A DNA stretch of 64,000 bases from Candidatus Omnitrophota bacterium (GCA_015233115.1 JADFYJ010000001.1:67084-131083); one strand, 5' to 3'. Shown: positions 143 to 47,900, counted from the first letter of the stretch. Made by a program: numbers and translations. Notes: generated by a model not told the origin, from the letters alone.

Positions 143-1006
143 ATGAGACATAACACGGATTGGTTTGACAACAAGCATTCACTGATCATTATGGTCGGGG
201 CGGCGTTATTGGTGATTCTTTTGGCCGTTAATTTTTTGTCAAATGATACGCCTGACCGCGCGCATGTGTTGCGGATTTCGGGGCCGGTGGTGATCGAGCG
301 AGCCGGAGAAAAAATTATACCTAGCGCTGGTATGCTTTTAAATGGCCAGGATAAAATTTTGACCGGCGAGGGATCATTTGTCGAAGTCGCTTATGATGAT
401 AATTTTAAGGATGTGGTCCGCATTGAAGCCAATTCTAAAGTTGTTTTTGAAAGCGCCAGGATCGAAAAGCAAACCACGCTTTTCATGGATCGCGGGGAAA
501 TGAAATTAAAATTAGATAAATTGGAAAAAGGCTCTACGTTTAAAGTCCGCACGCCCGTCGCGATTGCCGGTGTCAGAGGAACGGCTTTCGGAATGAAATT
601 TCAGGGGGATCAGGTTGTGATCACGGATTTTGAAAGTAAAATATTTGTCAAAGGATTAAATGATAATTTTGTGGAGATGAAGGACGAGCTTTTATTAAAT
701 GACGGATGGAAAGTCCGGGTTGCGCAATTCGAAAAACCGTCGCGGGTCGAGCGGATGACGGATGACGAGCATCTTTTATGGCAATCCTGGTTAAATGAAA
801 TTAACTCTTTACCTAAGGATAGTCTTGTGAATAATAGCTCTTACTCGAACTTCGCGGACATGAAAGAGTCTTTAACGCGCCGGGCCGCTTCTCAGTTATC
901 ACTGATCATAACCCGCACGGCTTCTTCAGCGTCAACGCTGGCCGTCATGCTGTTCGCGGTTTTAGTTCTTGGAACAGGAAAGGTAGTGGAAAAAGTATGG
1001 GCATAA
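143..1006 (+). CDS. FecR-domain protein with an N-terminal transmembrane segment (anti-sigma/iron-signalling-like)
   Basis: TPVAIAGVRGTAFGM motif typical of the FecR domain. There is an N-terminal hydrophobic helix. The ORF abuts the next gene. Confidence 0.55.
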   Translation: MRHNTDWFDNKHSLIIMVGAALLVILLAVNFLSNDTPDRAHVLRISGPVVIERAGEKIIPSAGMLLNGQDKILTGEGSFVEVAYDDNFKDVVRIEANSKVVFESARIEKQTTLFMDRGEMKLKLDKLEKGSTFKVRTPVAIAGVRGTAFGMKFQGDQVVITDFESKIFVKGLNDNFVEMKDELLLNDGWKVRVAQFEKPSRVERMTDDEHLLWQSWLNEINSLPKDSLVNNSSYSNFADMKESLTRRAASQLSLIITRTASSASTLAVMLFAVLVLGTGKVVEKVWA

Positions 1007-1752
1007 CGAAAATAGTTGAACATGATGAGCATATTGAACAATTGTGGTATATGAAGGAACAGGGTGAGGTTTCCGTTGATTTTTTAAAAACGTCAATGGG
1101 AAATACTTATAATGAAAAAGTGATTGAAGAGCTTTTTAACAGCGGCTTGATTGATTTAAGTCAAAACGCTTTGATTATTAAACTGTCCGACGATGGAGAA
1201 GCCCGCGCCCGTCAATTGATCAGAGCTCACCGTTTAGCGGAACGTTTAATCGCGGATGTTTTGGGCGGAGGGGGAACTGATCTGGAAAAAATTGCGTGTG
1301 AATTTGAACATACAGTTTCAGCCGAATTAGTCAATAGCATCTGTACTTTGTTAGGCCACCCGAAAGAATGCCCGCATGGTATGCCAATTCCTGAGGGAGA
1401 GTGTTGCCGTCTGGCTTTAAAAACTGAGTTGAGTTTGATCGTGCCTTTATCTGATCTTAAATTGGGAGAAACAGCCCGCATTGCATATATTAACTGCCGT
1501 AATGATCAGCAGATTCATAAACTTGAGGGATTGTGTATCAGGCCGGGCGTGATTGTTAAACTTCACCAAAATTACCCGACTTATGTTATTGAATGCGAGG
1601 GCGCCAGCATTGCCTTGGATAAAGAAGTGATCGCGAATATTTGCGTTTGGAAAAATGCTCAGCCTTCGGTTAGCGCGGCGGATCAGAAAAAATTGGATAA
1701 AAAAAATAACGGCAAAAGTTTGAGTAAATTTTTTCACCTTTTTAAAAAATGA
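997..1752 (+). CDS. DtxR/MntR-family metal-dependent transcriptional repressor with a C-terminal FeoA (SH3-like) domain
   Basis: RAHRLAERLIADVLG followed by EHTVSAELVN...HGMPIP matches the DtxR metal-site and dimerisation region. The C-terminal LKLGETARI...GVIVKL segment is a FeoA-like fold. Confidence 0.8.
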   Translation: MGITKIVEHDEHIEQLWYMKEQGEVSVDFLKTSMGNTYNEKVIEELFNSGLIDLSQNALIIKLSDDGEARARQLIRAHRLAERLIADVLGGGGTDLEKIACEFEHTVSAELVNSICTLLGHPKECPHGMPIPEGECCRLALKTELSLIVPLSDLKLGETARIAYINCRNDQQIHKLEGLCIRPGVIVKLHQNYPTYVIECEGASIALDKEVIANICVWKNAQPSVSAADQKKLDKKNNGKSLSKFFHLFKK

Positions 1753-1762
1753 GGAGAATTTC

Positions 1763-2932
1763 ATGGAGCAGCAATTAGAAGAGTTGCGTTTAAAAGAGAA
1801 GAAGCTGATTTATTTACTCGGTGAGACCATGTTTAATTTGTATAAGTCTCAAGGCGTGCGTTTTCTTTATACCTCTGCCGGTGAAGAAAAAGAAAAGGAG
1901 GTGACAAAATTAGTCAGATTGTTGGATTATATCGAGGACCGAATCGTTAAAATAGAAGAAATTTACAACGAGGAAGATGCGGAAGATGAAGCGGAATGTG
2001 AATGTGAATGTACAGAATGCGAATCAGAAGAAATGGAAGATAGCGCTGAAGACATGGCTGAAGCGGTAGCTGTTGAACCTGATTCCGAAATTATTTTAGG
2101 CGAAGAATCGCCCAAACAGGATGATGTCGTGGCTTTGGCTGAAAAACTGCTTCGACCCGATAAAGAAGTAGAATTAGAAGTAGAAATGATTACTCCGGTT
2201 GAGGCGGTAATCATGGACACGGTTGAAAATATATCGACTCCGGATTTGCCGATTGTTCAAGAAACCGCGGAGTCAACAGACGTGCTGCAAAATATTCTAG
2301 AATCTGCCGTGTTTGTTTCTGAGGCGGATAAAAATCTTTTTGAAAAAAATGTCAAACAGTATAAAAAAGGAACAGAACGCGAGCGGGAAGTCAGTATAAA
2401 CCAGATTTCGCATACGGTCAGCAATGAAGAACTCAAAAAAGTGTACCTTTTTGTGATGAAAGATTCCAGCGTTGCTGTTAGGCTGGCAGTTATGAAAAAC
2501 ATTTCGAGGATGAAGGAAAACGAAACTGCCGGATTCTGGGAATTGGGTTTGCATGACTCTGATATAAAAGTTAGAACCACAGCCATCAAAGGGATCGGCA
2601 CCCATGTTACAGATGCCCACCGGGAAGTTTTGGAAAATCTTCTAAATGATAATGACCCTTTAGTGCGTGGTTTGGCTGTGACATATCTGGGTATGTATTA
2701 TGGAAAGGACGGAGTTCTTAAGGCTTTGACGGCCTGGGAGGATGAAAGTCCTTACGTGCGGACAAGTTTAATTGAAATGATGTCTATAGTGAAGCCGGAA
2801 GGCGCGCTCTTGACGATCAAAAATTTATTATCTGATACTGATGAAGGTGTTAAGAAAGAAGCTGAAAAAGCACTCAAAAAAATTATGCCGGAAAGAAAAA
2901 GGGAAGGAACTCATGACAAACGAAAACGATAA
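1763..2932 (+). CDS. HEAT-repeat (PBS-lyase-like) protein with an acidic, Cys-containing N-terminal segment (ECECECTECESEEMED)
   Basis: C-terminal repeats with (D/N)xxVRxxA periodicity (DIKVRTTAIKGIG, DPLVRGLAV, SPYVRTSLIE, DEGVKKEAEKAL). SD-like GAGGAG lies upstream. Confidence 0.6.
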   Translation: MEQQLEELRLKEKKLIYLLGETMFNLYKSQGVRFLYTSAGEEKEKEVTKLVRLLDYIEDRIVKIEEIYNEEDAEDEAECECECTECESEEMEDSAEDMAEAVAVEPDSEIILGEESPKQDDVVALAEKLLRPDKEVELEVEMITPVEAVIMDTVENISTPDLPIVQETAESTDVLQNILESAVFVSEADKNLFEKNVKQYKKGTEREREVSINQISHTVSNEELKKVYLFVMKDSSVAVRLAVMKNISRMKENETAGFWELGLHDSDIKVRTTAIKGIGTHVTDAHREVLENLLNDNDPLVRGLAVTYLGMYYGKDGVLKALTAWEDESPYVRTSLIEMMSIVKPEGALLTIKNLLSDTDEGVKKEAEKALKKIMPERKREGTHDKRKR

Positions 2933-3383
2933 AAAATCAGGTAAAGAGAATTTTTTAAAAACCGTTTCCTACGGAACCGGAATAATCTGCAAGAAAGTCG
3001 CCGGCATTGGTAAAGTTGCGCAAACGAAACAATGGAAGAATGTTGTATCATCGACTCATAAATTATGTGATAAGGTTGGAACGAAAACCATGACGGTGGT
3101 GGAAAAAGTAAAGACCTCGGTTAAAAAAGGCACCAAAGATATCAGCAAATCTTTTGCCGCAGGGATGGAATCGGTCGAGAAAAAAGAAACAGCCAAAGAG
3201 ACGGCAATGTCTGTTAAAAAAACCGTAACTCCGGCGAAAAAGGTTGCTTCCAAAACCGCGGGCAAGCCTAGAACTGCGGCGAAAAAAAATGCGCGTAAAG
3301 CGGCGGTTGAAAAAAATGTTCCGATTAACGTTGATTTAGAAAAAGAGATTGATAGTATAACGATGGGCGTTAAAGAATCTTAA
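2913..3383 (+). CDS. Lysine-rich basic low-complexity protein (histone-H1-like composition)
   Basis: ORF 2841..3383. The internal Met at 2913 avoids a 90-nt out-of-frame overlap with the preceding gene. Composition is K/A/T/V-rich. Confidence 0.4.
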   Translation: MTNENDKKSGKENFLKTVSYGTGIICKKVAGIGKVAQTKQWKNVVSSTHKLCDKVGTKTMTVVEKVKTSVKKGTKDISKSFAAGMESVEKKETAKETAMSVKKTVTPAKKVASKTAGKPRTAAKKNARKAAVEKNVPINVDLEKEIDSITMGVKES

Positions 3384-3386
3384 AAC

Positions 3387-3520
3387 GGTATGTGGCATGT
3401 AGTATGTAGTTAAAACGATAGATTGGAAAAACGATTACTAAAATCATATGTTTTAGATGTTTTGTTTTTTAAAAATGATAAATTTTTTTGCGACATGCAA
3501 CATGCTACGAACGACATACT
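3387..3520. repeat. Composite intergenic element made of a TATGTRG heptamer array, a GGAAAAACGATTA core, an AT-rich spacer and an inverted heptamer array
   Basis: ggtatgtggcatgtagtatgtagtt at 3387-3411 and its inverted counterpart cgacatgcaacatgctacgaacgacatact at 3491-3520. The core ttggaaaaacgattact lies at 3423-3439. Confidence 0.8.
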
Positions 3521-3532
3521 TTTAAAATTAGG

Positions 3533-5551
3533 ATGCGCAGCATAATGGCCAAAAAAAACAAGCAAGAGATTCTTCAGGAATGCGACACCCAGTTTGATTC
3601 TCTATTTACATCTTTTGGTAAATTGTTGTATGAGAACATTCAAGCTGGTGGCATCTCCTTTTATTTTGATCCTCCGGACGCTGTTTTGACTGCTAGGGCA
3701 AAGCGTTATATCCGGGATATTGTGGTGCAAAAAATTTCTGACAAAAAAGTCAAACCAATGCCGCAAAAAACTGTTCCTAAAGTTGTTCCTAAAGCTGTTC
3801 CAAAAGTTGTGGCTGTGCCGGTTTTGAAACCTAAAAAAAATCAGGTTACGGCTATTTTCAATGGCGCGAAAAATGTTATTATGGGTAAACGGAAAGAAAA
3901 TAAACCGGCCTCTTTAGGCATAGACCGCCGGGGGCAGTTAGAATCATACACGCATTTGGTCGTTGATCTCCATGTCTTTGCCAAAAAGCTTTCTCTCGTT
4001 CAGAAAGATTTTAATCAATGTATTATTAAGGATCTTTTAAGCTCGCCTGGAGAGCAGATTTCATCTTATCAATCGGCGGTTGACGAAAAAATCCGGGAGA
4101 TCATATTATTGATGGCTAAGAAGCAGGAGGTTATAAAAACGATTATGGAAAAGAAAAGACAATTCTTTGCGGAACATACTGGAGCCAAAATGTGGAAACC
4201 CGAAGAAGATTTTTTGAAGCAGGTGCAACAGGACGCGGTTGAAACCACACAACGTATTGATGGTTTAATCAGTGAAGTGGTTGACCTTTTTAAAAACATT
4301 AAAGAACTTTATGATCATGACCTTGAACAGCACCGCTTAGTTCAGGAACAGGAAAAATTGCGGCAAGATTTGGTATCAACGTTTCCTGATTCATCTGTAT
4401 CTTCAGAGATTGACTTGCCAGTTTTGGAAAACACGCCGGAAGAAATTCCTGAATCTTTGGCTGTTTTAGAATCTATTTCTAAAAGTGTACCTGAAGAATC
4501 AGAACAACCTGAACTGCTCGAACCACCAGAACATCTTGAACAGCCAGAACAGCCCGATGAACAAGTGATCATGGTTCCGATCGCGGAACAACAGATCGAT
4601 CAAATTACTGAACAGGAACCGATCCGTCCCACTGAAGAAATTCTGGAGGAAGTGGAAGATTATGGATTGTTCGAAACGGCTGCGCGAAAGTTAGGAAGCG
4701 AAGTTGTAGATAAAGACCAAAAACTTGAAATTTTGCATATGCTCTTTCGCAATTCACCGAAAAAAGTCGTGCCGTTCTTATATGAATTTGTCAGGGATGC
4801 GGATATATTTCCAAAACGTCAATTGTTATTTTTATTAAATATGTTGGATTATCCGGCTATGGTTGGTGTTTACCGCCGATTTGTAACGGATGAAAATTCG
4901 TCAATGCGTCTGCAGGGAGTAATGGGTTTAGTCAAGTTAGATTCTATTGAATCAAAACAAGTGATCGCGACAGCCATTCATGATCGCGATCCGCATATTC
5001 GTAGATTTATTGTGAACCATTTAGATCACAGGGGTAGTGATCCTGAAGCGACAGCGATCGGGCGTTTAGCTGGCGACAGCGATGAGAATGTCGCGCGGAT
5101 TGCCATCCGTAAATTAGGATTAATGGGGAATCATTTCGCGTTTGTCTCTTTAGTTCCCAAGCTTGAGTCTCCGAATATTAAGATCCGTAAAGAAGTTATT
5201 AGTGCTTTGAAAGTCCTGACAGGCACAGATCTCGGATATAATTATGCCGCGACTGACAGTGAATTAAAACGTCATGTCCAGCCGTGGAAGACTTTGGCTA
5301 AGGAAAGTTATATGCATCCTCGTTTGTTACGGGATTTGAAATTAAAACATCTTCCGGCGCCGGGCACACCCAGACTCCAGACTGTAATTTCTAAAGAACC
5401 AAAAAAAACATCTGTAACTTCACAGAGGTCAGTGGTGGCAAAGAAAAAGACTCCGGTCGTGGCCCCCAAAAAAATATTTGCTCCTGCAAAAAGTTCGCAA
5501 CGGATGGCAGTGGTTGTAAATAAAAAAACTGTTAAAAAGAATAAAAGATGA
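3533..5551 (+). CDS. HEAT-repeat protein with KVVPK tandem repeats and an acidic Pro/Glu-rich linker
   Basis: C-terminal HEAT-like repeats (DPHIRRFIVNHL, DENVARIAIRKLG, NIKIRKEVISAL). The start is placed after the inverted heptamer array (ORF opens at 3488), so it is uncertain (3533 or 3545). Confidence 0.55.
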   Translation: MRSIMAKKNKQEILQECDTQFDSLFTSFGKLLYENIQAGGISFYFDPPDAVLTARAKRYIRDIVVQKISDKKVKPMPQKTVPKVVPKAVPKVVAVPVLKPKKNQVTAIFNGAKNVIMGKRKENKPASLGIDRRGQLESYTHLVVDLHVFAKKLSLVQKDFNQCIIKDLLSSPGEQISSYQSAVDEKIREIILLMAKKQEVIKTIMEKKRQFFAEHTGAKMWKPEEDFLKQVQQDAVETTQRIDGLISEVVDLFKNIKELYDHDLEQHRLVQEQEKLRQDLVSTFPDSSVSSEIDLPVLENTPEEIPESLAVLESISKSVPEESEQPELLEPPEHLEQPEQPDEQVIMVPIAEQQIDQITEQEPIRPTEEILEEVEDYGLFETAARKLGSEVVDKDQKLEILHMLFRNSPKKVVPFLYEFVRDADIFPKRQLLFLLNMLDYPAMVGVYRRFVTDENSSMRLQGVMGLVKLDSIESKQVIATAIHDRDPHIRRFIVNHLDHRGSDPEATAIGRLAGDSDENVARIAIRKLGLMGNHFAFVSLVPKLESPNIKIRKEVISALKVLTGTDLGYNYAATDSELKRHVQPWKTLAKESYMHPRLLRDLKLKHLPAPGTPRLQTVISKEPKKTSVTSQRSVVAKKKTPVVAPKKIFAPAKSSQRMAVVVNKKTVKKNKR

Positions 5552-5886
5552 CCAATACGATAAAACAAACACCAACTAAAAGAGCTCCCCGTAAAACCGC
5601 GGCTGTAAAAAAATCCATGACCGGAATTGGCACCCGTATGTCGGAAAGCGCGGAACGCGTCGCGGATATTATTCTTGAGGATAATCCCGGGGAAAAAAAA
5701 TCTAAAACGAAAAAAATTACTGACGAAACTCTTACGATGTTTAAGAGTGTGGCAGAACAAGTCAGAACCAATCTGAAAGATGTGCGTCCACAGGATTTTG
5801 TGGGCGATTTAGCTTATGGCGCAGGCAGAATTTCAGGAGCGACCAAACGAGCGCTGAGCCGCTTATATGATAATTTAACTGATTAA
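5548..5886 (+). CDS. Small basic hypothetical protein
   Basis: ORF start overlaps the stop of the upstream gene (ATGA). No recognisable motif. Confidence 0.4.
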   Translation: MTNTIKQTPTKRAPRKTAAVKKSMTGIGTRMSESAERVADIILEDNPGEKKSKTKKITDETLTMFKSVAEQVRTNLKDVRPQDFVGDLAYGAGRISGATKRALSRLYDNLTD

Positions 5887-6066
5887 TGGTAGATCCTCTC
5901 CGCCTTTGGGGAGAAAACCGGGTCTGGGGCTCCCCATAGTTTTTAAAAACTTAAAGGCAGTTAGACTTAATCGGTTTTCTGTTCAGCATATGGTTAAGAA
6001 TATTTAAGATAATATTTTAACATAATTTGTTAAAATGAAGTCTAACAGAGGGCAGGGTGAGGGGAT

Positions 6067-6249
6067 ATGAATAATAAATTTTTTAACGATCTTGGCCAGC
6101 AATTTTACGCGTGGTACCGGGACCATAAAATTCGTTTTGAATATGGCGGGCAAAGTAAGGACCTGGAGCTAGAAGTTGAACGCATTACAGGACTTATAAA
6201 TTATGTAGAGAAGAAAAAAGCGTCACTTCTTGACAAAAAAATAATTTGA
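6067..6249 (+). CDS. Small hypothetical protein (60 aa)
   Basis: Isolated ORF with an upstream GGGTGAGGGG SD-like sequence. No motif. Confidence 0.3.
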   Translation: MNNKFFNDLGQQFYAWYRDHKIRFEYGGQSKDLELEVERITGLINYVEKKKASLLDKKII

Positions 6250-6361
6250 AATAATACGTATAACTTCTTGATTTTGTTTTTGTTTCTCTTTATAATAAGT
6301 GCAGTTTATAGATAATTCATTTAATTTTCTAAACAAAGCACCCGTTTTCGACGAGGAATTT

Positions 6362-7441
6362 ATGCCAACAGAAAAAACAGCAGCTGGTTCCAATGATTTC
6401 GCGCGCTTTTTAGGATCAACTATCCGACGAGTGGAAAATGATTTCAAATTTTTGACTTTATTCCCTAAGCGTCCATTGCCTAAACCTGTGGCCGTGAAAA
6501 AAGAAATTCCGATTGCTGCTGTTTCCGTTCCTGTTCCCGTTGTTGCAAAGCCTTTGCCGTCGGTGACTTCAGTTAAAATTAATATTCCCGAGCCGGTTAT
6601 TTTTGAAAAAACCAAACCCGCTGTCCCCCATGCTGAAGCGTCACCGGTTGCCGTGGAAAAAATAATTCCCTTGTCAGCTGAAGAGAAAAAATATATTAGC
6701 AAAGAACAAGGATTAAAAAATATTACGTTTGTTAATAAGGCCGAACAAGTTAAAGCGGAAATTTATTTCCGTGATTTACAGTCGTCCAGCCGAGCTTTGC
6801 GTGTTGATGCCTTGCGTGAGATCAGGAAGCTTTCACGGCCGACAGTTATAGCGATATTGGAACAACTCTTGTCCGTCGAAACAGATACGTTACAGATTAT
6901 CGAATTGGTTAATGCTTTAGCCGCGGTTAGTGAAGACACCCAAATCCCTAAAAATTTATTCCGAAAATATATTTCTCATCCTGATGCCGGCATTCGTTTA
7001 GCGGCACTGCGGGCCATTTCAAAATACCGGGATGAAGAAAGTTTTAATGTTTTAACGACCTATCTAAAAGATAAAGATTCGGAAGTCCGCCGGCAAATGA
7101 TTAATTGTTTATGCTGGTCCTTCGGTGAACGCTGTCTGCCGTACGTGATTGTCGCGTTGCATGATTCTGATCCCATTGTCCGTAAGGCGGCCACCCAGAT
7201 TGCCGGTGTTTTAAAATCTAAGCAGGCGATTTCTTCCTTGATTACTCTATTGAGCGATCAGCATGAAGAAGTTCAGTCCGGCGCGGCAGCCGCTTTGAAA
7301 AAAATAACCAAAGAAGATTTTGATTTCAAGGTGACAGGGACAAAAAGAGAAAAAGATGATGCTATCGAATCCTGGCGTTTTTGGTGGAGAGAAAACCAAA
7401 CCCAATTCGAACGAGCTAAAGATAAATTTGTAATTAAATAA
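6362..7441 (+). CDS. HEAT-repeat protein with a Pro/Val-rich N-terminal half
   Basis: HEAT-like repeats (DAGIRLAALRAI, DSEVRRQMINCL, DPIVRKAATQIAG, HEEVQSGAAAALKKI). GAGGAA SD precedes the internal Met at 6362 (ORF opens at 6299). Confidence 0.55.
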   Translation: MPTEKTAAGSNDFARFLGSTIRRVENDFKFLTLFPKRPLPKPVAVKKEIPIAAVSVPVPVVAKPLPSVTSVKINIPEPVIFEKTKPAVPHAEASPVAVEKIIPLSAEEKKYISKEQGLKNITFVNKAEQVKAEIYFRDLQSSSRALRVDALREIRKLSRPTVIAILEQLLSVETDTLQIIELVNALAAVSEDTQIPKNLFRKYISHPDAGIRLAALRAISKYRDEESFNVLTTYLKDKDSEVRRQMINCLCWSFGERCLPYVIVALHDSDPIVRKAATQIAGVLKSKQAISSLITLLSDQHEEVQSGAAAALKKITKEDFDFKVTGTKREKDDAIESWRFWWRENQTQFERAKDKFVIK

Positions 7442-7464
7442 ATGTATATACCAAGGAGGCTGTT

Positions 7465-7650
7465 ATGAAGGGATTACTAATTGCAGTAGGAGTGGTTTTC
7501 GCGGGTTTTGTGGGATACAAAATTATTGAGAAGAAAAATCCCGCACTTTTTAAAAAGATCAAGGGCAATATTACTAATGCCGGAAAAAATATGTCAGCAA
7601 TGGTGGAAGAGGCGAAAGAATCATTTTATGAAGGTTACGCTCAAGGCTAA
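7465..7650 (+). CDS. Small single-pass membrane protein (61 aa)
   Basis: Strong SD (AAGGAGG) 6 nt upstream. N-terminal hydrophobic helix LLIAVGVVFAGFVGY. Confidence 0.5.
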   Translation: MKGLLIAVGVVFAGFVGYKIIEKKNPALFKKIKGNITNAGKNMSAMVEEAKESFYEGYAQG

Positions 7651-7665
7651 TAAAGGGAAATAACT

Positions 7666-8040
7666 ATGGCTGTCAATAAATCAACTTTTAAAAAATGTTC
7701 GGTCAAGGGTTGCCGCAATAAAGGACTGGCTAATGGCCGCTGTCTAAAGCATGCTAAGATCTCTGCGTCAACGCATGTCGCTCCTGTTAAAAGAACTGTA
7801 TCGCATATCAAAAAGGTACGCGCGGCGCATGTTGAACATGTTAAAGAACCAGAAGTAAAAGTGGTTCATGCCGCGCCAGAAGAGAAAAAAGTATTAAAGC
7901 TTGAAGCGCCAGCGGTTATGAAACATAAAGAACAAAAAGTTTCTGGCCGACATAAAGGACCCCTTAATTCTGTTTGTTATTGGGCCGGTACGTTTTTTAG
8001 CGACACGACGGAGATTTTTAAAATACAAAAGGCGAAATAA
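7666..8040 (+). CDS. Basic zinc-ribbon-like protein (CxxC...CxxH)
   Basis: KKCSVKGCRNKGLANGRCLKHAK cysteine/histidine pattern. Lys-rich. Sits within the + strand operon. Confidence 0.4.
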   Translation: MAVNKSTFKKCSVKGCRNKGLANGRCLKHAKISASTHVAPVKRTVSHIKKVRAAHVEHVKEPEVKVVHAAPEEKKVLKLEAPAVMKHKEQKVSGRHKGPLNSVCYWAGTFFSDTTEIFKIQKAK

Positions 8041-8043
8041 TTT

Positions 8044-8814
8044 ATGATGAGACGAATATGTGTCGCGAATCAAAAGGGCGGGGTTGCTAAAACTACGACC
8101 TCATTAAATTTGGCGGCTGAACTGGCGCGGGCAGGTAAAAAAGTTGTTTTGATCGACATGGATCCTCAGTTTTCTTCGACGGCAGCCATTTTTGGCAATC
8201 AACGTTTTGAATTTAATATTTATAATGTCATTGTTGATAAGATGGATATCCATTCGGTTATCCAGCATTCAGACGCTTTTGGCATTGACGTTGTGCCAAG
8301 CGATATTGAATTGTCCGGCGCTTCCTTGAGGATTAATGAGCAGATCGGGCGGGAAAAAGTTTTGTACCATTATACCCGCAAACTGAAATATGATTATATG
8401 ATCGTGGACGCGCCGCCGTCTTTGGGCTTGCTAACTGTCAACGCTTTGACCGCGTGCGATGAACTGCTGGTTCCGATTTGTCCTGAATTTTTTTCGTTAA
8501 AGGGGATTAAACTTCTGGAAGAGATAGTGGAGAATGTACGGGTCGGGTTAGGGTGCGATATTAAAATTACGGGTGTGGTGATTACGCGTTATCGCGAAAG
8601 GTTAGTGACGAATGAAGCGAGGAACGCGATCAGAAATTATTTTGGCAAGAAAGTATTTAAAATTGAAATTCCTGAAAATATAAAGTTAGAAGAAGCTCAC
8701 AACGCCCATCTGCCGGTGTATAAGTACGATGTGAAATCAAAGGGGGCGGAAGCGTACCATCAATTAGCAAAGGAGATTATGAATGGGAGATTCCAGAAAA
8801 ATCCAAGCAAGTAA
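8044..8814 (+). CDS. ParA/MinD-family P-loop ATPase
   Basis: Deviant Walker A NQKGGVAKTTTSLNLA, then LIDMDPQ, then IVDAPPSLG. Classic ParA/Soj arrangement. Confidence 0.85.
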   Translation: MMRRICVANQKGGVAKTTTSLNLAAELARAGKKVVLIDMDPQFSSTAAIFGNQRFEFNIYNVIVDKMDIHSVIQHSDAFGIDVVPSDIELSGASLRINEQIGREKVLYHYTRKLKYDYMIVDAPPSLGLLTVNALTACDELLVPICPEFFSLKGIKLLEEIVENVRVGLGCDIKITGVVITRYRERLVTNEARNAIRNYFGKKVFKIEIPENIKLEEAHNAHLPVYKYDVKSKGAEAYHQLAKEIMNGRFQKNPSK

Positions 8815-9604
8815 GGAGACGGATACGACATCAAGAAGAAAAAAGCTTATTGATAATCCGCTTCTTCAATCAACTGTAAGAATGTCTTCGCACCGGGACA
8901 GCGAACCTGAACTTGCGTCCAGGTCTTCCATCCGTTCCGCGGTAAGGCAGATTAAAGATTCGACTAAGTACATCATGTCTCCTGATGAAGAAAAGGCCAG
9001 TGTTTTTGAAATTATTTCAGATTTAGAAAAACAGCTGGATGCCGCGTTTAGCATTAAAGATGCTCAGGAAAATGAAATCCAGAGTTTGAATACCAAAGTT
9101 GATAATGCTCAGGAGAAAGCCGGGATGCTAGAGGCTAAACTCAAAGAGATGAAAGGTTTGCTGGTTTCTCAGGAAGAATTGAATTCTGAGTTGGAATTTC
9201 TCGAGAATGAACGTTTGGAAACAGTCGGCAAAACCAAGTCTTTGGAAGAAGATTTGGTAGGGCGCGAAGCTGTTATTAAAGATCTGGAAAATAAAATTGC
9301 TTCCCTTCAAAAGGAATGTGAAAGCCGGGATACCAGAATAGAACAAATCGAACTGGAACTTTCCAGCGCGAATAAAACGATTCAAAGTTTTCATCATCAG
9401 ATCTCGCTATTGGAAGATGAGAAAGAAGCAGTTACCAATAAACTTGAAAAAACTGACGGTGAACTGAGCAGTACTATTACCGAGCGTGATCAGCTTAAAC
9501 GTGAGTTAGAACGCGCTAAAGAAAGTCTGGACGAGATTCGTTTGATGTTAGCCGATACTCGCTCCCGCGCGCGCGAACATTATTACAAACCAAAAGGAAA
9601 ATAG
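8783..9604 (+). CDS. Coiled-coil protein
   Basis: Heptad-rich E/K/L composition throughout (LEAKLKEMKGLLVSQEELNSELEFLENERLE...). Start uncertain (the ORF overlaps the parA-like stop). Confidence 0.5.
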   Translation: MGDSRKIQASKETDTTSRRKKLIDNPLLQSTVRMSSHRDSEPELASRSSIRSAVRQIKDSTKYIMSPDEEKASVFEIISDLEKQLDAAFSIKDAQENEIQSLNTKVDNAQEKAGMLEAKLKEMKGLLVSQEELNSELEFLENERLETVGKTKSLEEDLVGREAVIKDLENKIASLQKECESRDTRIEQIELELSSANKTIQSFHHQISLLEDEKEAVTNKLEKTDGELSSTITERDQLKRELERAKESLDEIRLMLADTRSRAREHYYKPKGK

Positions 9605-9624
9605 TTATAGTAAGGAGTTTTAAT

Positions 9625-10617
9625 ATGGGACAGCCTAAAGGCTTAGATGTGGGTACGATGAACCTGGTAGGCGCGGAACAAGGCGCTGACGGCAAGATTA
9701 AGTTGAAATTGGTTCGTCACACTTTCTTGGATATTGACGCGAATTCTTTTACCTTGAACATGCTGAAAAAACAAAAAGTTCAGTATGCTGAAATGGGTAA
9801 AAAAGTTTATGTTTTAGGTGATTCAGCTTTTGAATTGGCTAATATCATGAATAAAACCGTCCGACGTCCAATGCAGGATGGTGTCATGAGTCCAGGCGAA
9901 GCTGATGCTCTGCCAATTTTTGGCCTTTTGATCGAAGCGGTTTTGGGCAAACCTACAGAAAAAAATCAGTTATGTTATTTCTCTGTCCCTGCAGACCCGG
10001 TCGACGCTAATTTTAATATTGTTTATCACACCAGCGTTATTATCGGCGCGCTTAAGAATTTAGGATATACTCCTAAGCCCATGAATGAAGGTCACGCGGT
10101 TGTATTCGCGGAATTAGGTGAAAAAGATTTTACCGGAATTGGTATTTCAGCCGGCGGCGGTATGTTTAATATTTGTGTTTGTTATAAAACAATTCCTGCG
10201 ATTAGTTTCGCGACCAGCCGTGCTGGTGACTGGATTGATAAAAACGTGGCGCAAGTACTCGGTATTAAAACAACTCGCGCGACCGCAATTAAAGAAAAAG
10301 GAATTAATATTTATAAGCCGGCAAACCGCGAAGAAGAAGCGGTTTGTATTTATTATCGGAATTTGATTAATTATACGTTAGTCAATATTAAGAATAAATT
10401 TGAAACAGCAGAATCAATGCCTCAATTTCCGGAACCGATTGAAATCGTGTGTGCCGGCGGTTCTTCTATGATCAACGGATTTGTGGATGTTTTTAAAGAG
10501 GAACTAAAGAAAATGACCTTCCCGATTCCGATCAGCGATGTCCGTCTAGCCAGTGAACCGTTGTACGCAACAGCAAGAGGTTGTTTGCTTGCAGGTCTAA
10601 GCGAAGTTGATGAGTAA
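9625..10617 (+). CDS. Actin-like ATPase of the MamK family (MamK/Mad28-like)
   Basis: Conserved blocks shared with MamK: GLDVGT (phosphate 1), YVLGDSAFE, RRPMQDGV, TGIGISAGGG (phosphate 2) and IVCAGGSSMINGF (adenosine motif). SD AAGGAG is upstream. Confidence 0.75.
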   Translation: MGQPKGLDVGTMNLVGAEQGADGKIKLKLVRHTFLDIDANSFTLNMLKKQKVQYAEMGKKVYVLGDSAFELANIMNKTVRRPMQDGVMSPGEADALPIFGLLIEAVLGKPTEKNQLCYFSVPADPVDANFNIVYHTSVIIGALKNLGYTPKPMNEGHAVVFAELGEKDFTGIGISAGGGMFNICVCYKTIPAISFATSRAGDWIDKNVAQVLGIKTTRATAIKEKGINIYKPANREEEAVCIYYRNLINYTLVNIKNKFETAESMPQFPEPIEIVCAGGSSMINGFVDVFKEELKKMTFPIPISDVRLASEPLYATARGCLLAGLSEVDE

Positions 10618-10665
10618 TTTGTGAAATTTTTACGGGGACATGATACGTAATTTGTGGGTTTTTAG

Positions 10666-10739
10666 TTGTTGGATGTTGGTTGTTGGTTATTGATATAATC
10701 GCTTTTTCCAAAAACCAAAAACGATCAACCATCAACCAA
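10666..10739. repeat. Composite intergenic element made of a TTGTTGG heptamer array, an inverted core ATCGCTTTTTCC and an inverted CAACCAA array
   Basis: gttgttggatgttggttgttggtt at 10666-10689, atcgctttttcc at 10698-10709 and caaccatcaaccaa at 10726-10739. Confidence 0.8.
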
Positions 10740-10792
10740 ATTATGTTTCGTGTCCCCTGATTAATATAACTTTCTTACGAAAGAGGGCGGGA

Positions 10793-12238
10793 GTGGGTGA
10801 AGATGAATTAGCAAAAGTCAGGGAGAGACTTTCGAAAATAAACGAAAAAATTAAGCAGTATTCCTCCGTAAAAAATCCGCAGTCTGCTAAAGAAAAACCT
10901 TTTGATTCTTCCCGATATAGACAAGGCAAAGAAATTTCTGTTGAAAAAATGCACGCTAAATTGCGGGCCATTAATCAATATGTCCGGGATCGTGCTTTAG
11001 GTAAAGATGTGGAATATCCGGTCAGGGAAGAAGTTGAAGTCGAAGAAGAAATTGAAGCCCCTGTCGCTCAACCTGCTCCCGTGCCTGAACGACGTGTAGT
11101 CCAACGGATTTCCAATGAAGTGGTTATGGAAAAGGCTGAGGCAATTGGTGAAGTGATGGATGAGTCAGCCGTCACCAAACCTGAAGAAGCCACTACCGCG
11201 GATTTGCCGGGAACTTCACGGGTTGTGGAAGCGGCGCGTCTTGGCGTCGGCCTTGATCTGGGAACCGCGTATATTGTGTCCAGCCGTGAAGTGGAAGATA
11301 AACGGGTATTTGTCAAAAATGAGCGGAATGCTTTTTTGTCGGTTCGGTGTGATACCGCGACGAAAGAACTTTTGAGCAAACTCAAAGTTAAATATGTCGC
11401 TTTGGGCGAGAAACTGTATGTTTTAGGAACTATGGCGTTGGAATTAGCGGACATGTTCGGACGTGAAACACAGCGGTCCATGAATATGGGAATTCTTAAT
11501 CCGTCAGAATCGGAATCGATTCCGATTATCAAACTTTTGGTGCAGAATATTTTGTGGGCGCCCCGTCAGCCAGGAGAAATTTGCTGTTTTTCCATTCCTG
11601 CCCAGCCTATCGACCGCGATCAAGATACGATTTATCATCGGGGAGTTTTTGAAGGAATTTTAAAGAGCATAGGTTTTGACGCGATGGTTATTGATGAAGG
11701 TTACGCGGTCGTTTTATCAGAAATGGAAAAACAAAATTTTACCGGTATAGGTGTTTCTTGCGGAGCGGGCATGGTTAATATTTGCGCAGCTTTTCAAACA
11801 GTGCCAGTATTGTCATTTTCGATTACGCGCGGTGGAGATTGGATAGATAAAAACGCGGCAACAGTTTTAGGGATTCCTACGACCAGAGTTTCATCAATCA
11901 AAGAGCACGGCATGGATTTAAAAAATCTTAAAAACCGCGAAGAAGAAGCGATCGCGATTTATTATCGTAATTATATCCATTATTTGTTAGAGAGCATGGC
12001 GAAAGTATTTGGAGACAGTGCAAACACATTAAATTTTAAGGATCCCGTGGATATTGTTTTTGCAGGCGGATCTTCGATGGTTCCGGGCTTTATTGATGTG
12101 GTCAGAGAAGAAATTAAATCTATTAAATTTGCTTTTGCCCTTGGTAATGTGACCAGAGCGGACGAGCCTTTCACGAGCGTGGTACGGGGTTGTTTGTTTA
12201 ACGCGATCAATGCGGGAAATAAAACGAATGAGTCCTGA
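10793..12238 (+). CDS. MamK-family actin-like ATPase with a ~150-aa N-terminal extension
   Basis: C-terminal 330 aa are paralogous to 9625..10617 (GLDLGTAY, YVLGTMALE, TGIGVSCGAG, IVFAGGSSMVPGF). GTG start with an upstream AAGAGGG SD. The N-terminal extension is charged with a Pro-rich stretch. Confidence 0.7.
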   Translation: MGEDELAKVRERLSKINEKIKQYSSVKNPQSAKEKPFDSSRYRQGKEISVEKMHAKLRAINQYVRDRALGKDVEYPVREEVEVEEEIEAPVAQPAPVPERRVVQRISNEVVMEKAEAIGEVMDESAVTKPEEATTADLPGTSRVVEAARLGVGLDLGTAYIVSSREVEDKRVFVKNERNAFLSVRCDTATKELLSKLKVKYVALGEKLYVLGTMALELADMFGRETQRSMNMGILNPSESESIPIIKLLVQNILWAPRQPGEICCFSIPAQPIDRDQDTIYHRGVFEGILKSIGFDAMVIDEGYAVVLSEMEKQNFTGIGVSCGAGMVNICAAFQTVPVLSFSITRGGDWIDKNAATVLGIPTTRVSSIKEHGMDLKNLKNREEEAIAIYYRNYIHYLLESMAKVFGDSANTLNFKDPVDIVFAGGSSMVPGFIDVVREEIKSIKFAFALGNVTRADEPFTSVVRGCLFNAINAGNKTNES

Positions 12239-12821
12239 CATTTCAGGTTTGACCGAAGATCCGGAAATTTTGGTACAAAAATATTCCAAACGCTTAGATG
12301 ATATCCGTATGGCACGGCATCAATTGGACGGCGAATTTTTAACCACGAATACATCTCTCAATGATTTTATCTCTTCCACCGATGCGGTTATTCACCGTTT
12401 GATGACTAAAAAAGCAGAACCTAAAAAAATGACGATTGTCCCATCGGCTGACGTCATTTCCTCTCAGCCGCCGTTAGTCGCGCCAGCTGGCGGACAAGCG
12501 ATGACGCTAGAGGATTTTAAAACTCATATGGGGTCGATTTTGCAAGGTTCTTTGGAAGCGGCTACGGATAAGATTTCTAATCGCATCCAAGGGATGCTGA
12601 AAGAATTAAGAGGATTGTCCGGCCCCGCGCGCGACGCGAAATATCGCGAGATCCAGCAGGTCGCTGAATATGAAATGATTGATATTTCTCAACTTTATAA
12701 ACATGAAGAAGTACAAAGTAATTTAGGCGAAATCGGGGTTGCTGAAACTGAAACTAAAAGTATCGACGCGAATTTGGAGCGCCTGCGTAAAATGCGCGGC
12801 TCGAAACCTAAAAAAGAGTAA
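12210..12821 (+). CDS. Hypothetical protein
   Basis: ORF overlapping the stop of the upstream gene. An alternative start lies at 12228. No motif. Confidence 0.45.
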   Translation: MREIKRMSPDISGLTEDPEILVQKYSKRLDDIRMARHQLDGEFLTTNTSLNDFISSTDAVIHRLMTKKAEPKKMTIVPSADVISSQPPLVAPAGGQAMTLEDFKTHMGSILQGSLEAATDKISNRIQGMLKELRGLSGPARDAKYREIQQVAEYEMIDISQLYKHEEVQSNLGEIGVAETETKSIDANLERLRKMRGSKPKKE

Positions 12822-12835: not shown

Positions 12836-14008
12836 ATGATTATAATTTTTGGTGTTTTGATATTTTTGGCTTCATTGGCATTAATTGATTTTGTTTTTCT
12901 ATTTCAAGACATCCTTAAACTAGAAAAAGCAGCTAAGGGTCAGGGCGATGGTGAACATAGCGATGTGACCCGTTTAAAGCAGGATTTAGAGTTCAAGGTT
13001 AATGAGTTATCAGCGAAAGAACAAGAGATCCGGCGTATTACGTCTGATTTAACCAGACTGCAAAATCAGCAAAAAAGCGTTATGCTGGAAGCAGAATCAG
13101 CCTCTGCAAAAGATAATGAAATCAAACGCCTGACCATTGAGTTAGCGCATATGACGGATCAAGCCAAAGAAATTGCTAAAGTAAAAACCGATTTATCCGC
13201 TGCTCTTTCAGAAACGCAGGATTATAAAAATAAGGTTGAACAGATTCGGCTCGAGTACGACAAAATTAAAGCTGAACTTACCAAAAAAATTGCTGAAGGC
13301 TCGACCGCGAATACGGCTAGCCAGGAATATGAAAAAAACATTCAACAATTAAACGCGGAAGCTAAGAAATTTAAAAGTGAGCTGGACAGCAAGATCAATG
13401 AGCTTATTCTTGCTCAGACAGATGCACAAGAAAATAAGAAAAAATTGGTTCAGGTTCAAGCTGACTATGACAAACTGAAAGTTGACTTAAATCTTAAGAT
13501 CACTGAAGGCACTGCTGCACAAGCCACATCGGAAGCGTCCCAAGAAAATCTTCGCCAGCTTCATAATGAACTCAAAAAATTAAAAAATGATTTAGAACTT
13601 AAAACCACTGAGTTGGCAGATAAAGATATAGAAGTTAAAACAGTTGCCGCGGAATTGGCTAAAATACAATATCAGCAAAAAAACGCGGTTAAAAGTAGTC
13701 AGGATTTGACTGAAGGTTTAAGTAAGCTTAAGAAAACTGCCGACGAATTAGATTTAATTGAAAAGTCTTTGGATGAAGAAAAAAAAGCTTTGTATGAAAT
13801 GAAAACCCGGTTTCAGGAAGGCAAAATGAAACTAGGACTTTTGAGTGAAAAAAGTAAAGAATCGGTGGAACTCATCGCCCAGTTTGCTGAAGGCAAAGAA
13901 TTTGAAGAATTCCGCAAATCCATCCACATGGACGAGATCATTAATAAATATGAAGGTGAAATTAAAAGTTTAAAGTTGAAGGTTTTAGATCTCGAAAAAA
14001 AAGTTTAA
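12836..14008 (+). CDS. Membrane-anchored coiled-coil protein
   Basis: N-terminal hydrophobic helix IIIFGVLIFLASLALIDFVFLF followed by about 350 aa of heptad-rich coiled coil. Confidence 0.55.
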   Translation: MIIIFGVLIFLASLALIDFVFLFQDILKLEKAAKGQGDGEHSDVTRLKQDLEFKVNELSAKEQEIRRITSDLTRLQNQQKSVMLEAESASAKDNEIKRLTIELAHMTDQAKEIAKVKTDLSAALSETQDYKNKVEQIRLEYDKIKAELTKKIAEGSTANTASQEYEKNIQQLNAEAKKFKSELDSKINELILAQTDAQENKKKLVQVQADYDKLKVDLNLKITEGTAAQATSEASQENLRQLHNELKKLKNDLELKTTELADKDIEVKTVAAELAKIQYQQKNAVKSSQDLTEGLSKLKKTADELDLIEKSLDEEKKALYEMKTRFQEGKMKLGLLSEKSKESVELIAQFAEGKEFEEFRKSIHMDEIINKYEGEIKSLKLKVLDLEKKV

Positions 14009-44947: not shown

Positions 44948-47900
44948 ATGAATCTCACCAAAAATAATCCTAGTTATATCGTCTGTATCGGCGCGTCTGC
45001 CGGCGGACTGGAAGCATTGATTTCGTTTTTAAAATGCTTGCCTAAAACTACAAATATGGCGTATGTGCTGATTCAGCATCTGGAACCACAGCATAAAAGC
45101 GCGTTATCAGAGATTCTTTCCCGAGAAACAATTTTGAATGTCTGTGAAGCCAAGAATAATACAAAAGTCGAAGCAGGACATGTCTATGTTATTTCGCCTA
45201 ATACTCTGCTGGCCATTTCAAAAGGGTTTTTAAAAATTACTTCCCGGATAAAACGCATTGATGGGAGATATTTACCCATTGATTATTTTATGACCTCCTT
45301 GGCTAAAGATCAAGGTCCTAAGGCTGTTGGTATTATTCTTTCAGGGACAGGATCAGATGGGACTCTCGGGGCTAAAGCGATTAAAGATCAGGGAGGTATG
45401 GTATTTGCGCAAAATAAAATAACGGCGCGGTATTTTGGGATGCCGGGAAGTGTTATAGCGGGCGGATTGGCGGATTTTGTGTTGCCGCCTGATAAGATGG
45501 GGAAAAAACTTTTGCGTTTGGAAACCCATGAATACATTTCATCTTTAAAACCAACTATTAAGAGTCCTGATGAATCAGATTATCTTAATCGGATCCTTGT
45601 GTTACTTCGTGATCGAACGGGTGTGGATTTTATTCATTATAAGAAAAATACGATTGGTCGTCGAATTGAACGAAGGATGCTCTTTCATAATCTTAAAAAT
45701 CATGCGGATTATTATAACTATCTTAAAAAAAATCCGGTTGAAGTCGAAGCTTTGCGTCAGGATATTCTTATTCCCGTTACGTCTTTCTTCCGCGATCCTA
45801 AGCTATTCGCGGCAATTGCAAAAAAAGTGTTCCCACATATTACGCGTAAACGTTCCCCGCAAAATCCTCTTCGTTTATGGGTGACTGCCTGCTCTTCGGG
45901 GGAAGAGGTTTATTCTCTGGCTATATTCTTTTATGAGGCTATGGAAAAAAAGCAGATTAAGCCTTGCCTGCAGATTTTTGGGACGGATTTAAGTGAAATG
46001 CATATCAATAAAGCGCGCGCTGGTTTATATACCAAAGATATTTCTGACCATGTTTCCGCTGAACGTTTGCGGCGGTTTTTTGTGAAAACTGAGACAGGCT
46101 ATAAAATTGCTAAACCTATACGGGAACTCTGTATATTTGCTAAGCATGACATAACCAGCGACCCGCCATTGTCTAATATGGATATGGTGAGTTGCCGGAA
46201 CCTTCTTATTTATCTCGATTCATTTTTACAAAATAAAGCATTGTCAACGCTGCATTACGCGCTTAAACCCAATGGTTTTCTAATTCTGGGATCAGCGGAA
46301 TCAGTCACGGCCGTGCCGAATCTTTTTACGGTGGTTGATCAAAAACAAAAAATTTATTTAAAAAATATTTTAAGTCGGAAAATTATACCTGATATGAAAA
46401 AGAAACCTATTATATTGAATGCCCCCAAGAACCGGAACGCGGCAAAAAAAAATTATCCTAAACTTAGTCCAAATAAGCCCAGTAAAGTGACTGATTTTAA
46501 AATGCAAGAATTCGATAAAATAATTTTAGGAGATACGAAGAAGGACATAGCGAAGTTAAAAAAAGAATTCGGCCGGACAGTGGAACGTTTGAACGCGGTG
46601 AATGAGGAAAAAGATACTTTTAACGAAGAGCTAAAGGCAGCGAATGAAGAAGTTCAATCCAGCAATGAAGAATTGCAAAGCATGAATGAGGAGCTGGAGA
46701 CCTCTAAAGAAGAACTGCAATCGACCAACGAAGAATTGCTGACGCTTAATGAGGAATTGCAGAATAAAAATGGAGAGTTATTACGGCTTAACAGTGATTT
46801 GAGCAATGTTTTCGCCAGCACGAATATTCCTATTATTATCGTAGGTAATGATCTGTGTATCAAACGTTTTACACCGATGGCGCGAAAAGTGATGAACCTG
46901 ATCGCGACGGATGTCGAGCGTCCGATCGGTGATATTAAACTCAACATTGATGTCCCTAATTTAGAAGAAATCCTGCGTGGCGTCATCGAAGATATGGTTC
47001 CTAAAGAATCAGAAGTTCAAGACAAAGAAGGGCGATGGTATTGCATGCGTCTGAGGCCGTACCGGACGTTGGATAACAAAATTGACGGAGCGGTCATGAC
47101 CATGATCGATATTGATGTCATTAAGCGCAGTAATGAAAAAATAGAAAGCACTCTTAAATATACTCAGGCTATTATTGAAACCATGCGGGAACCTTTGGTC
47201 GTTTTGGATAAAGACGCCCGTATTTTATCCGCGAATAAATCTTTCTATGGCTTTTTTAAAACCACGTTAACTGAGACGGAAAATAAACTTTTATATGAGG
47301 TTGCGGGGCAGCATTGGGACAAACCAGAACTGCGGAAATTACTCGAGGATGTGTTACCGAAAAAAAGTCATTTTACGGATTTTGAAGTGACCATTGATTT
47401 TCCGAATATCGGCGTTAAAACCATAATTCTTGATGGTCAGCAGATTAAGATGCGCGGTCAAGAGCAACCCATGATCCTTCTGGTCATGGAAGATATCACA
47501 AAACGCAGAAAAGCGGAAGATGTTTTGAAACGTGATAGCGAAACTTTGGAAAAATTAGTTAAGGAACGAACTCAGGAAGCCATGGATCTGCAGATAAAAC
47601 TGGCACGGGAGAAACATCTTTCTGATTTAGGAACCATGGCCGCTACGGTCGCGCATGAATTGCGCAATACTTTGGCAGGGATCAGTGTAGCCGCGTATAA
47701 CATTAAGAAGAAGGTCAATGATCCCAAGGTTGAAGGGAATTTTAATGTTATTGATAAAAAAATATTAGAGGGTGATCATATTATTAATAATGTTTTATCG
47801 TATTCGAAAATTAAGATATCCCACTTAGGCGCAGTCAAAATCAATTATGTTCTTGAATTATGCATGACGGAATTACGTAACAAAGTCGTGAGCCATGGTG

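Follow-up and report, generated by a model that had tools for sequence, protein, structure and literature searches.

A conserved pair of Mad28/Volactin-family actin genes, one with a twin-helix N-terminal extension, in a mad-like gene neighbourhood of an Omnitrophota bacterium

What kind of actin-like proteins do two adjacent genes of a Candidatus Omnitrophota bacterium encode, and what might the long N-terminal extension of the second one contribute? The genes lie on the plus strand of a 64,000-nucleotide stretch of DNA (GCA_015233115.1, JADFYJ010000001.1:67084-131083), which we call the window and by whose numbering all coordinates are given. Open reading frame (ORF) A ('ActA', 9625..10617) starts with ATG and encodes 330 amino acids (aa); ORF B ('ActB', 10793..12238) starts with GTG and encodes 481 aa. 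A sequence-only reading of the window had described them as tandem MamK-like paralogues, and its observation of two intact, neighbouring actin-fold genes on the same strand was confirmed: both products belong to Pfam family PF25216 and align without gaps over 321 residues (42% identity, E 2e-103), placing the start of the ORF B core near residue 151 and giving an extension of ~150 aa. ORF B is 100% identical to the NCBI hypothetical protein HQL26_00455 from a Candidatus Omnitrophica metagenome-assembled genome (MAG). We think it probable that the two genes are a conserved Mad28-type actin pair at the accessory mad end of a magnetosome gene cluster, one supplying a core filament and the other a tethered adaptor. 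Our confidence is high that both proteins are members of the Mad28/Volactin family and that the extension of ORF B is translated, and modest for the polymer-plus-adaptor mechanism.

Profile searches placed both proteins in the Volactin family. ORF A, a predicted leaderless actin-like ATPase, matched Pfam Volactin (PF25216, gathering threshold 35 bits) with 265.3 bits and E 1.2e-78 over protein residues 5-323 and profile positions 3-320 of 321; the match of ORF B covered residues 152-471 and profile positions 3-321 of 321 (276.2 bits, E 5.9e-82). The NCBIfam MamK model NF040964, whose cut-off is 400 bits, scored ORF A at only 30.2 bits and ORF B at 29.2 bits, in a match confined to ~150 residues (57-212). 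Together with the full-length PF25216 match, these scores refute the earlier MamK label at the family level. Neither protein matched MreB_Mbl (PF06723) at E <= 0.01, and the FtsA models stayed under their cut-offs (PF14450, 22.7 and 18.8 bits against 31.8; TIGR01174, 16 bits against 175.85). In the databases, the NCBI records P0121, P0123, P0006, P0021, P0198 and P0212 are nevertheless named FtsA or 'cell division FtsA domain-containing protein'; with the FtsA models below cut-off, such names on Volactin-family records look like systematic mis-annotation.

The sequence motifs tell Mad28 and MamK apart. Awal et al. (2023) reported that Mad28 has a MamK-like fold at 15-17% identity to MamK, and that its phosphate-2 motif reads xxxSxGxGxx where MamK has xxxDxGxGxx, and its connect-1 motif xExx where MamK has xEPx (PMC10653835). 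We found this Mad28 signature in both proteins. Phosphate-2 is GIGISAGGGM in ORF A and GIGVSCGAGM in ORF B, with Ser in place of the canonical Asp, and connect-1 is NEGHAV and DEGYAV, respectively, without the Pro typical of MamK; the MamK motifs (phosphate-2 DxGxG, connect-1 xEPx) were thus not found at ISAGGG/NEGH in ORF A or at VSCGAG/DEGY in ORF B. Phosphate-1 reads GLDVGT in ORF A and GLDLGT in ORF B, and the adenosine motif AGGSSM and the connect-2 motif RGCL are common to both. The statement of the sequence-only reading that both genes carry all five actin motifs therefore stands, but only for the Mad28/Volactin version of the motifs, because the phosphate-2 Asp is replaced by a Ser that is invariant throughout the family alignment (S175 in A1). 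ORF B also keeps the other invariant family columns, including D155, E302, S322/G324/G326 and G425/G426.

Structural comparison gave a compatible picture. The closest solved structures by sequence are MamK entries at E ~1e-6 (5LJW, E 1.6e-6). We built an AlphaFold2 model of ORF B on 59 orthologues (mean predicted local distance difference test score, pLDDT, of 83), in which the core (residues 151-481, 11243..12238) is predicted to form a complete four-subdomain actin fold with pLDDT >90. The top Foldseek match of this model in the PDB was the MamK filament 5LJV (E 6.5e-14, template modelling (TM) score 0.74, 20% identity), followed by MreB structures as second-tier matches at 14-18% identity, a ranking that agrees with the MamK-like fold reported for Mad28.

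The link to Mad28 itself was drawn through a Nitrospirota protein, P0490 of Ca. Magnetominusculus dajiuhuensis, which served as the Mad28 reference and is called Mad28 by its gene context; the RS-1, BW-1 and Mbav sequences stood outside this comparison. We took P0490 as Mad28 because feoB and a DtxR/FeoA gene adjoin it, with a hypothetical gene and then a ParA gene on the other side, as in the published Nitrospirota arrangement of mad28, a hypothetical gene and mad29, where feoA/feoB are homologues of mad30/mad17 (PMC9376291). P0490 carries PF25216 and aligns over the whole core with ORF A (38% identity, E 3e-70) and with the core of ORF B (34% identity, E 2e-66). The DtxR/FeoA proteins of the window and of the P0490 locus are 51% identical; the likeness between the ParA proteins of the two loci is limited to the P-loop region, and the 203-aa gene after ORF B has no similarity to the 183-aa gene that follows the P0490-type gene. 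Five short RS-1 Mad28 peptides were derived from primers (Shimoshige et al. 2025 supplement). One of the five, NQLNA, agrees with QLNAFF, the motif that is the hallmark of the P0490 subfamily, and none of them picked out RS-1 Mad28 among the proteins compared. A search with the QLNAFF subfamily returned Desulfobacterota and Nitrospirota proteins, all with PF25216 and some from Nitrospirae MAGs with HQK/HQL tags; no match carried the name Mad28 in the protein searches for family members. In the literature, mad28 is listed among the genes of Omnitrophota magnetosome clusters (PMC12713370), and reports of a duplicated mad28 are limited to two Nitrospirota genomes (PMC9376291, PMC8353452).

The N-terminal extension of ORF B consists of two conserved helices followed by a variable linker. 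We retrieved ~58 full-length ORF B orthologues, aligned over 98-99% of ORF B including the extension, and computed conservation on 59 aligned orthologues. Motif 1 (residues 4-24, DELAKVRERLSKINEKIKQYS; 10802..10864) is a conserved heptad helix with the consensus ELxxVRxRLxxINxKIK (52% column identity, 71% group conservation). Motif 2 (residues 47-68, EISVEKMHAKLRAINQYVRDRA; 10931..10996) is a second conserved helix with the consensus SLEEMxxKLRxINxYLRxR (59% column identity, 79% group conservation). The two motifs form an internal repeat, phi-(R/H)-x-(K/R)-L-x-x-I-N-x-x-phi-(K/R), with hydrophobic residues spaced 3-4-3-4. AlphaFold2 predicted helices at residues 3-24 (pLDDT 74-83) and 50-68 (pLDDT 81-88), and disorder over most of residues 69-144, with pLDDT <50 for most of 79-144. 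The linker (residues 69-150; 10997..11242) is acidic and Pro-rich, and its length differs widely between orthologues; over residues 69-135 it has no consensus (27% column identity, 33% group conservation, low occupancy), and a small LP motif is conserved at residues 138-139. The sequence-only reading had laid its emphasis on a Pro-rich stretch, EAPVAQPAPVPERRVVQRI (residues 88-106; 11054-11110), which falls inside this linker, that is, in the least conserved part of the extension.

The start of ORF B at GTG, proposed by the sequence-only reading, was upheld. This GTG is the first ATG, GTG or TTG past the upstream stop, and motif 1 begins four codons after it. It is preceded by the Shine-Dalgarno sequence AGAGGG (10782..10795 including the start), and the arrangement AAAGAGG, 5-9 nucleotides (nt), GTG GTx GAx GAx is repeated in at least eight orthologous loci of different species, in which the GTG is the sole possible start before motif 1. 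ORF A has a strong Shine-Dalgarno sequence of its own (TAAGGAG at 9611-9617, 7 nt before the ATG). Against the closest orthologous locus, L018, the ratio of nonsynonymous to synonymous substitution rates (dN/dS) was 0.14 in both the motifs and the linker of the extension and 0.02 in the ORF B core. From this sequence evidence, both genes are intact, under purifying selection and retain their nucleotide-binding residues, and the extension, which is absent from MamK and MreB, is real and translated, because its motifs are conserved, its dN/dS is 0.14, its GTG and Shine-Dalgarno sequence are conserved and its helices are predicted.

BLAST searches with the extension found matches confined to the ORF B orthologues. 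N-terminal extensions, even coiled-coil fusions, are common in the family, and the leaders of the Nitrospirota Mad28 clade resemble ORF B in design: they measure ~90 aa and open with a short acidic helix (MAEASEYQKEIEKLKQRLTEIE...), after which comes a Pro/Ala-rich linker. The N-terminal region of RS-1 Mad28 (48 aa) likewise contains an amphipathic helix, and truncations of this region abolish filaments (PMC12713370). The narrow heptad-type hydrophobic stripe of the ORF B helices, with its flanking charges, would slightly favour another protein over a membrane as the binding partner.

How the two genes are related was examined in a neighbour-joining tree of 79 cores (325 columns, Kimura-corrected p-distances, 100 bootstraps), whose deep order is only indicative. 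ORF A is a compact, slowly evolving core without a leader. It forms a clade with 100% support nested among short forms from Planctomycetota (~350 aa, leaders of 25-40 aa), to which it is 55-62% identical, compared with ~42% to ORF B. ORF B is a separate deep lineage on a long branch and was sister to ORF A in 0 of 100 bootstraps; support for the Desulfobacterota/Nitrospirota (Mad28) clade is 100%. Because ORF A is nearer to the Planctomycetota proteins than to ORF B and the two are never sisters, the pair does not stem from a recent tandem duplication; the genes are adjacent paralogues, as had been noted, and on this sequence comparison the pair is an old association of two diverged family members. 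Between orthologues from ~20 Omnitrophota-type genomes, identity is 71-95% for ORF A and 60-95% for the ORF B core, which marks ORF B as the faster-evolving partner.

The family to which the pair belongs is large. It comprised 1151 clusters at 50% identity and had 543 relatives among the GTDB species representatives, mostly Planctomycetota among the matches listed. At seven Planctomycetota loci (L032, L046, L073, L075, L078, L079, L083) a short member is followed ~1.4-1.7 kb on by a second tandem copy, which in all six readable ORFs has 139-483 residues ahead of the core (140-180 in five). All these additional copies group in one clade (100% bootstrap) apart from ORF B, so that a 'short plus long' arrangement seems to have evolved at least twice. 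Other family representatives unite such parts in one polypeptide: P0224, P0225 and P0228 (about 730 aa) have two actin cores, and in P0227 (669 aa) the core is fused to an N-terminal region of ~340 aa that by eye resembles a coiled coil. These forms are either natural fusions of partners that are separate here or gene-calling artefacts.

We next describe the genes around the pair, all on the plus strand. An upstream mad-like block (143..7441, Pfam assignments) contains FecR (143-1006), DtxR/FeoA (997-1752) and three HEAT-repeat proteins (1763-2932, 3488-5551, 6299-7441) with small basic proteins between them; the order is FecR, DtxR/FeoA, HEAT, 180-aa, HEAT, 112-aa, 60-aa, HEAT, 61-aa and 124-aa protein. 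It continues with a ParA/MinD-type ATPase in a mad29-like position (8044..8814; Pfam AAA_31, CbiA, ParA) and a 273-aa coiled-coil protein directly 5' of ORF A (8783..9604; weak matches to tropomyosin, SMC and crescentin rod). ORF B is followed by a 203-aa conserved protein that overlaps its end (12210..12821; no Pfam or NCBIfam match), a 390-aa coiled-coil protein with an N-terminal hydrophobic segment (12836..14008; SMC-like coiled-coil matches only) and a run of PAS histidine kinases and response regulators. The ParA gene overlaps the 273-aa coiled-coil gene by 32 nt (8783-8814), and ORF B overlaps the 203-aa gene by 29 nt (12210-12238), or by 11 nt if the second Met is the start; the latter overlap is 4 nt in L001 and L004. 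Such overlaps suggest translational coupling within the block.

Synteny was assessed by tblastn of the window proteins against 86 loci. Both actin genes were present in 20 of the 20 assessable Omnitrophota-type genomes, and the order ParA, coiled-coil gene, ORF A, ORF B and 203-aa gene is kept in Omnitrophota-type loci where the contig reaches. ParA orthologues (75-93% identical) and the 273-aa coiled-coil gene are syntenic in the Omnitrophota loci covering that region, the 203-aa gene follows ORF B (35-77% identity) in those reaching that far, and the 390-aa coiled-coil gene occurs in many, not all, orthologous loci. At least six genomes have the whole block from FecR to the coiled-coil gene, and the upstream mad-like genes stand in the same order in L004, L007, L013, L014, L020 and L023. 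FeoB precedes the mad-like block in L004. The genes upstream in L022 are, in order, TauE, a PDZ gene, two unassigned ORFs and then FeoB, and in UBA10174 NAPRTase and AAA_14 genes take the upstream place of FecR and DtxR. Among GTDB species representatives of the Omnitrophota only about two dozen carry the pair, and most of these are MAGs from surveys of magnetotactic bacteria (nDJH*, nHGR*, nHLH*, nS315*, nXX*, MBPbin6, Cal1bin1; such a survey is that of Lin et al. 2020, PMC7602337). Judged by its gene content, the neighbourhood fits the 3' accessory (mad-gene) end of a magnetosome gene cluster.

Some features of the neighbourhood deserve mention in their own right. The HEAT paralogues (389, 687 and 380 aa; 1763-8040) are each trailed by one or two lysine-rich small proteins without a family match (180 aa after the first, 112 and 60 aa after the second, 61 and 124 aa after the third), which looks like a thrice-repeated 'HEAT plus small protein' sub-module, kept in orthologous loci. 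In the Omnitrophota MAG nDJH6bin18 (L021, 4199-7779) a 304-aa HEAT-repeat gene stands between the two actin genes; this is the sole break in their adjacency that we saw, and no ParA gene was detected there in the expected place. The dense signalling run downstream (14060-35443 and 44948-48304) contains PAS histidine kinases, hybrid kinases, response regulators, NMT1-like binding proteins paired with Cache-PAS kinases, and a 1118-aa fusion of CheB methylesterase, CheR methyltransferase, PAS and histidine kinase. It is partly syntenic in orthologous loci and may belong to magnetotaxis signalling.

The 175-base-pair (bp) gap between ORF A and ORF B holds a long imperfect hairpin (10634..10757, + strand), located by folding and by mapping of inverted repeats. 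The fold of 10610-10800 has a minimum free energy of -52.8 kcal/mol (z -2.95), and the base of the stem, GGGGACATGATAC...TGTCCCC, is kept in L018, with a much shorter loop. The hairpin could tune the ratio of ORF A to ORF B expression, or could be a small inserted repeat. We found no consensus promoter or terminator in the gap, site counts being not above those in shuffled sequence. Co-transcription of the two genes is plausible from the sequence, because they lie on the same strand with gaps of 18-220 bp in the orthologues and no consensus terminator.

How might the two proteins work together? Mad28 forms filaments in vivo and in vitro (PMC10653835), and in RS-1 it positions the magnetosome chains at the positively curved side of the cell, the chain being mislocalised when mad28 is deleted; a two-hybrid assay showed binding of Mad28 to Mad25, a coiled-coil protein (PMC12748827). 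If they behave like the Mad28 proteins of Desulfobacterota and Nitrospirota, the products of both genes would assemble into filaments and so position the magnetosome chain. ORF A would supply the bulk of the filament, and ORF B would either co-assemble with it or make its own parallel filament. The twin N-terminal helices of ORF B, on their flexible tether, would dock onto a partner, most likely one of the coiled-coil proteins encoded nearby and otherwise the membrane. ORF B may be the minor subunit, made in lower amount than ORF A. A lower amount is hinted at by the conserved GTG start and by the hairpin that follows the ORF A stop codon here and in L018, and is what would be expected of an adaptor subunit. 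More tentatively, and clearly on the doubtful side of even odds, we can picture a two-component filament in which a leaderless ORF A polymer is joined by less abundant ORF B, whose twin-helix module on its ~80-residue tether would couple the filament to coiled-coil or HEAT-repeat magnetosome proteins, with Mad28 as the magnetosome tip of a large actin family.

Several observations weigh against a magnetosome filament with an adaptor, and some of them would suit a different system altogether, namely a general cytoskeletal system of the Planctomycetes-Verrucomicrobia-Chlamydiae (PVC) lineage that serves cell shape, division or, with ParA, the positioning of chromosomes or cargo, and merely lies beside magnetosome genes. 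The window contains no mam gene. ORF A is nearer to homologues of apparently non-magnetotactic Planctomycetota than to Nitrospirota or Desulfobacterota Mad28, the family at large is mostly non-magnetotactic, and in some Planctomycetota, too, an N-extended gene comes after a short one. Family members occur in non-magnetosome contexts, for example in Desulfurivibrio alkaliphilus (P0404), and in Nitrospirae JMFO01 (L088, 10001-13293) one lies directly upstream of a class A penicillin-binding protein; the NAPRTase and AAA_14 flank of UBA10174 points the same way. ATP-dependent polymerisation and effects on chain position or curvature-dependent localisation are known for the BW-1, Mbav, HCH-1 and RS-1 proteins only (PMC10653835, PMC12748827, PMC12713370), and we infer polymerisation, co-polymerisation and partner binding of ORF A and ORF B. 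Hidden Markov models of motif 1, motif 2 and both gave only non-significant matches (E 0.1-2) to other leaders of the family, although these always lay at the extreme N-terminus of Nitrospirota and Desulfobacterota leaders, which is suggestive. The stoichiometry argument, which uses the GTG start and the hairpin, is a weak clue, further weakened by orthologues whose gaps of 18-31 bp have no hairpin. A role of the pair unrelated to magnetosomes nevertheless seems unlikely to us. The Omnitrophota carriers are few and were mostly recovered as magnetotactic bacteria, the pair always lies within the same mad-like block of HEAT, coiled-coil and ParA genes (with DtxR/FeoA, FecR and FeoB where the contig allows), the Planctomycetota genes (L027-L086) are accompanied by none of these neighbours, and mad28 has its published place in Omnitrophota magnetosome clusters.

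Other explanations concern the proteins themselves. ORF B could be a non-polymerising regulator of ORF A filaments (a nucleator, capper or membrane anchor) whose actin fold binds filament ends; its faster evolution on a long separate branch, its conserved GTG, which suggests lower expression, and its adaptor-like N-terminal module would fit such a role. We regard it, too, as improbable: ORF B keeps all family-invariant nucleotide-binding and core residues and a complete predicted fold, its core dN/dS is 0.02, and nothing sets it apart from polymerising members at the level tested. Far less probable is a heteropolymer of MamK and MamK-like as in Magnetospirillum magneticum AMB-1. Of the solved structures, that of MamK is nearest both by sequence and by fold, and MamK is the only NCBIfam match of note, but its model scores ~30 bits against the 400 needed, MreB_Mbl gives no match, Pfam assigns both proteins to Volactin, phosphate-2 and connect-1 differ from MamK, identity to MamK in structural alignment is ~20%, and a separate mamK is reported in magnetotactic Omnitrophota (Table S1A of PMC10653835). 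Among the pair analogies drawn by the sequence-only reading, that of a MamK/Mad28-like pair came closest, whereas the MamK/MamK-like pair fails at the family level. That the extension is an annotation artefact, translation starting at an internal Met, or that ORF B is a decaying duplicate, we find hardly credible. The start is a GTG, in-frame Met codons occur at residues 53, 112 and 122, and three database entries (P0010, P0024, P0030) are annotated from the Met equivalent to M53, yet motif 1, placed directly behind the GTG, is kept in the ~58 orthologues, no alternative start precedes it, both helices are predicted with confidence and the core is intact. A pseudogene and an untranslated extension, the two outcomes that the sequence-only reading had named against itself, are ruled out by dN/dS, the conserved start region and the intact core.

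The Mad28-type pair that we prefer can be set beside several known systems. With Mad28 of RS-1, BW-1, Mbav and HCH-1 it shares PF25216 (in P0490, taken as Mad28), the phosphate-2 Ser, connect-1 without Pro, the MamK-like fold, feoB, DtxR/FeoA and a ParA-like gene nearby, and an N-terminal region before the core (~48 aa in RS-1, ~90 aa in Nitrospirota) that opens with a short acidic or amphipathic helix. It differs in that the Omnitrophota proteins are only 34-38% identical to the Nitrospirota protein and sit on a separate (PVC) branch, and in that two genes are paired here in at least 20 genomes, one leaderless and one with a ~150-aa leader carrying two repeated helices. Volactin of Haloferax volcanii (HVO_2015), founder of PF25216 and a dynamically polymerising actin homologue (PMC10869688), is matched over the full profile at E ~1e-80; it is archaeal, acts in the rod-to-disk transition of cell shape and has no known organelle link or comparable gene neighbourhood. 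MamK and MamK-like of Magnetospirillum also make up two interacting actin paralogues, and MamK is a magnetosome-positioning filament as well as the nearest solved structure, but MamK belongs to another family (~20% identity, Asp instead of Ser in phosphate-2) and lacks an N-terminal extension, and MamK-like is its close paralogue, whereas ORF A and ORF B diverged anciently. A further parallel is offered by MreB, whose N-terminal amphipathic helix binds the membrane, and by FtsA, which has a membrane-targeting helix at its C-terminus: both are actin-fold filaments that attach to a surface through a short, linker-borne helix at one end of the protein; the helices of ORF B, unlike these, are duplicated, and their narrow heptad stripe and charges would suit a protein-protein contact rather than a typical membrane anchor.

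Mad28, its presence in Omnitrophota clusters, its N-terminal region and its functional divergence from MamK are already known. We found no description in the literature of a conserved pair of leaderless and long-leader Mad28 in Omnitrophota, of the twin-helix module, or of Mad28 and archaeal volactin in one Pfam family, one general review containing both 'volactin' and 'magnetosome' being left aside. Recognition of Mad28 as the second magnetosome actin in deep-branching magnetotactic bacteria is recent; the protein acts unlike MamK and may sense cell curvature. Its split into two obligatorily paired paralogues is a natural experiment that separates the polymerising part of Mad28 from the docking part. 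Mad28 also shares its Pfam family with archaeal volactin and with apparently non-magnetotactic homologues of Planctomycetota and Desulfobacterota, which makes it part of a broad cytoskeletal family and not an invention specific to magnetotactic bacteria. If the tentative two-component filament exists, it would combine actin and adaptor in a single heteropolymer, a design for which no counterpart has been described among bacterial actins, and Mad28 would be the magnetosome-associated tip of a large, unstudied Volactin family that extends over >500 GTDB species, chiefly Planctomycetota and Desulfobacterota.

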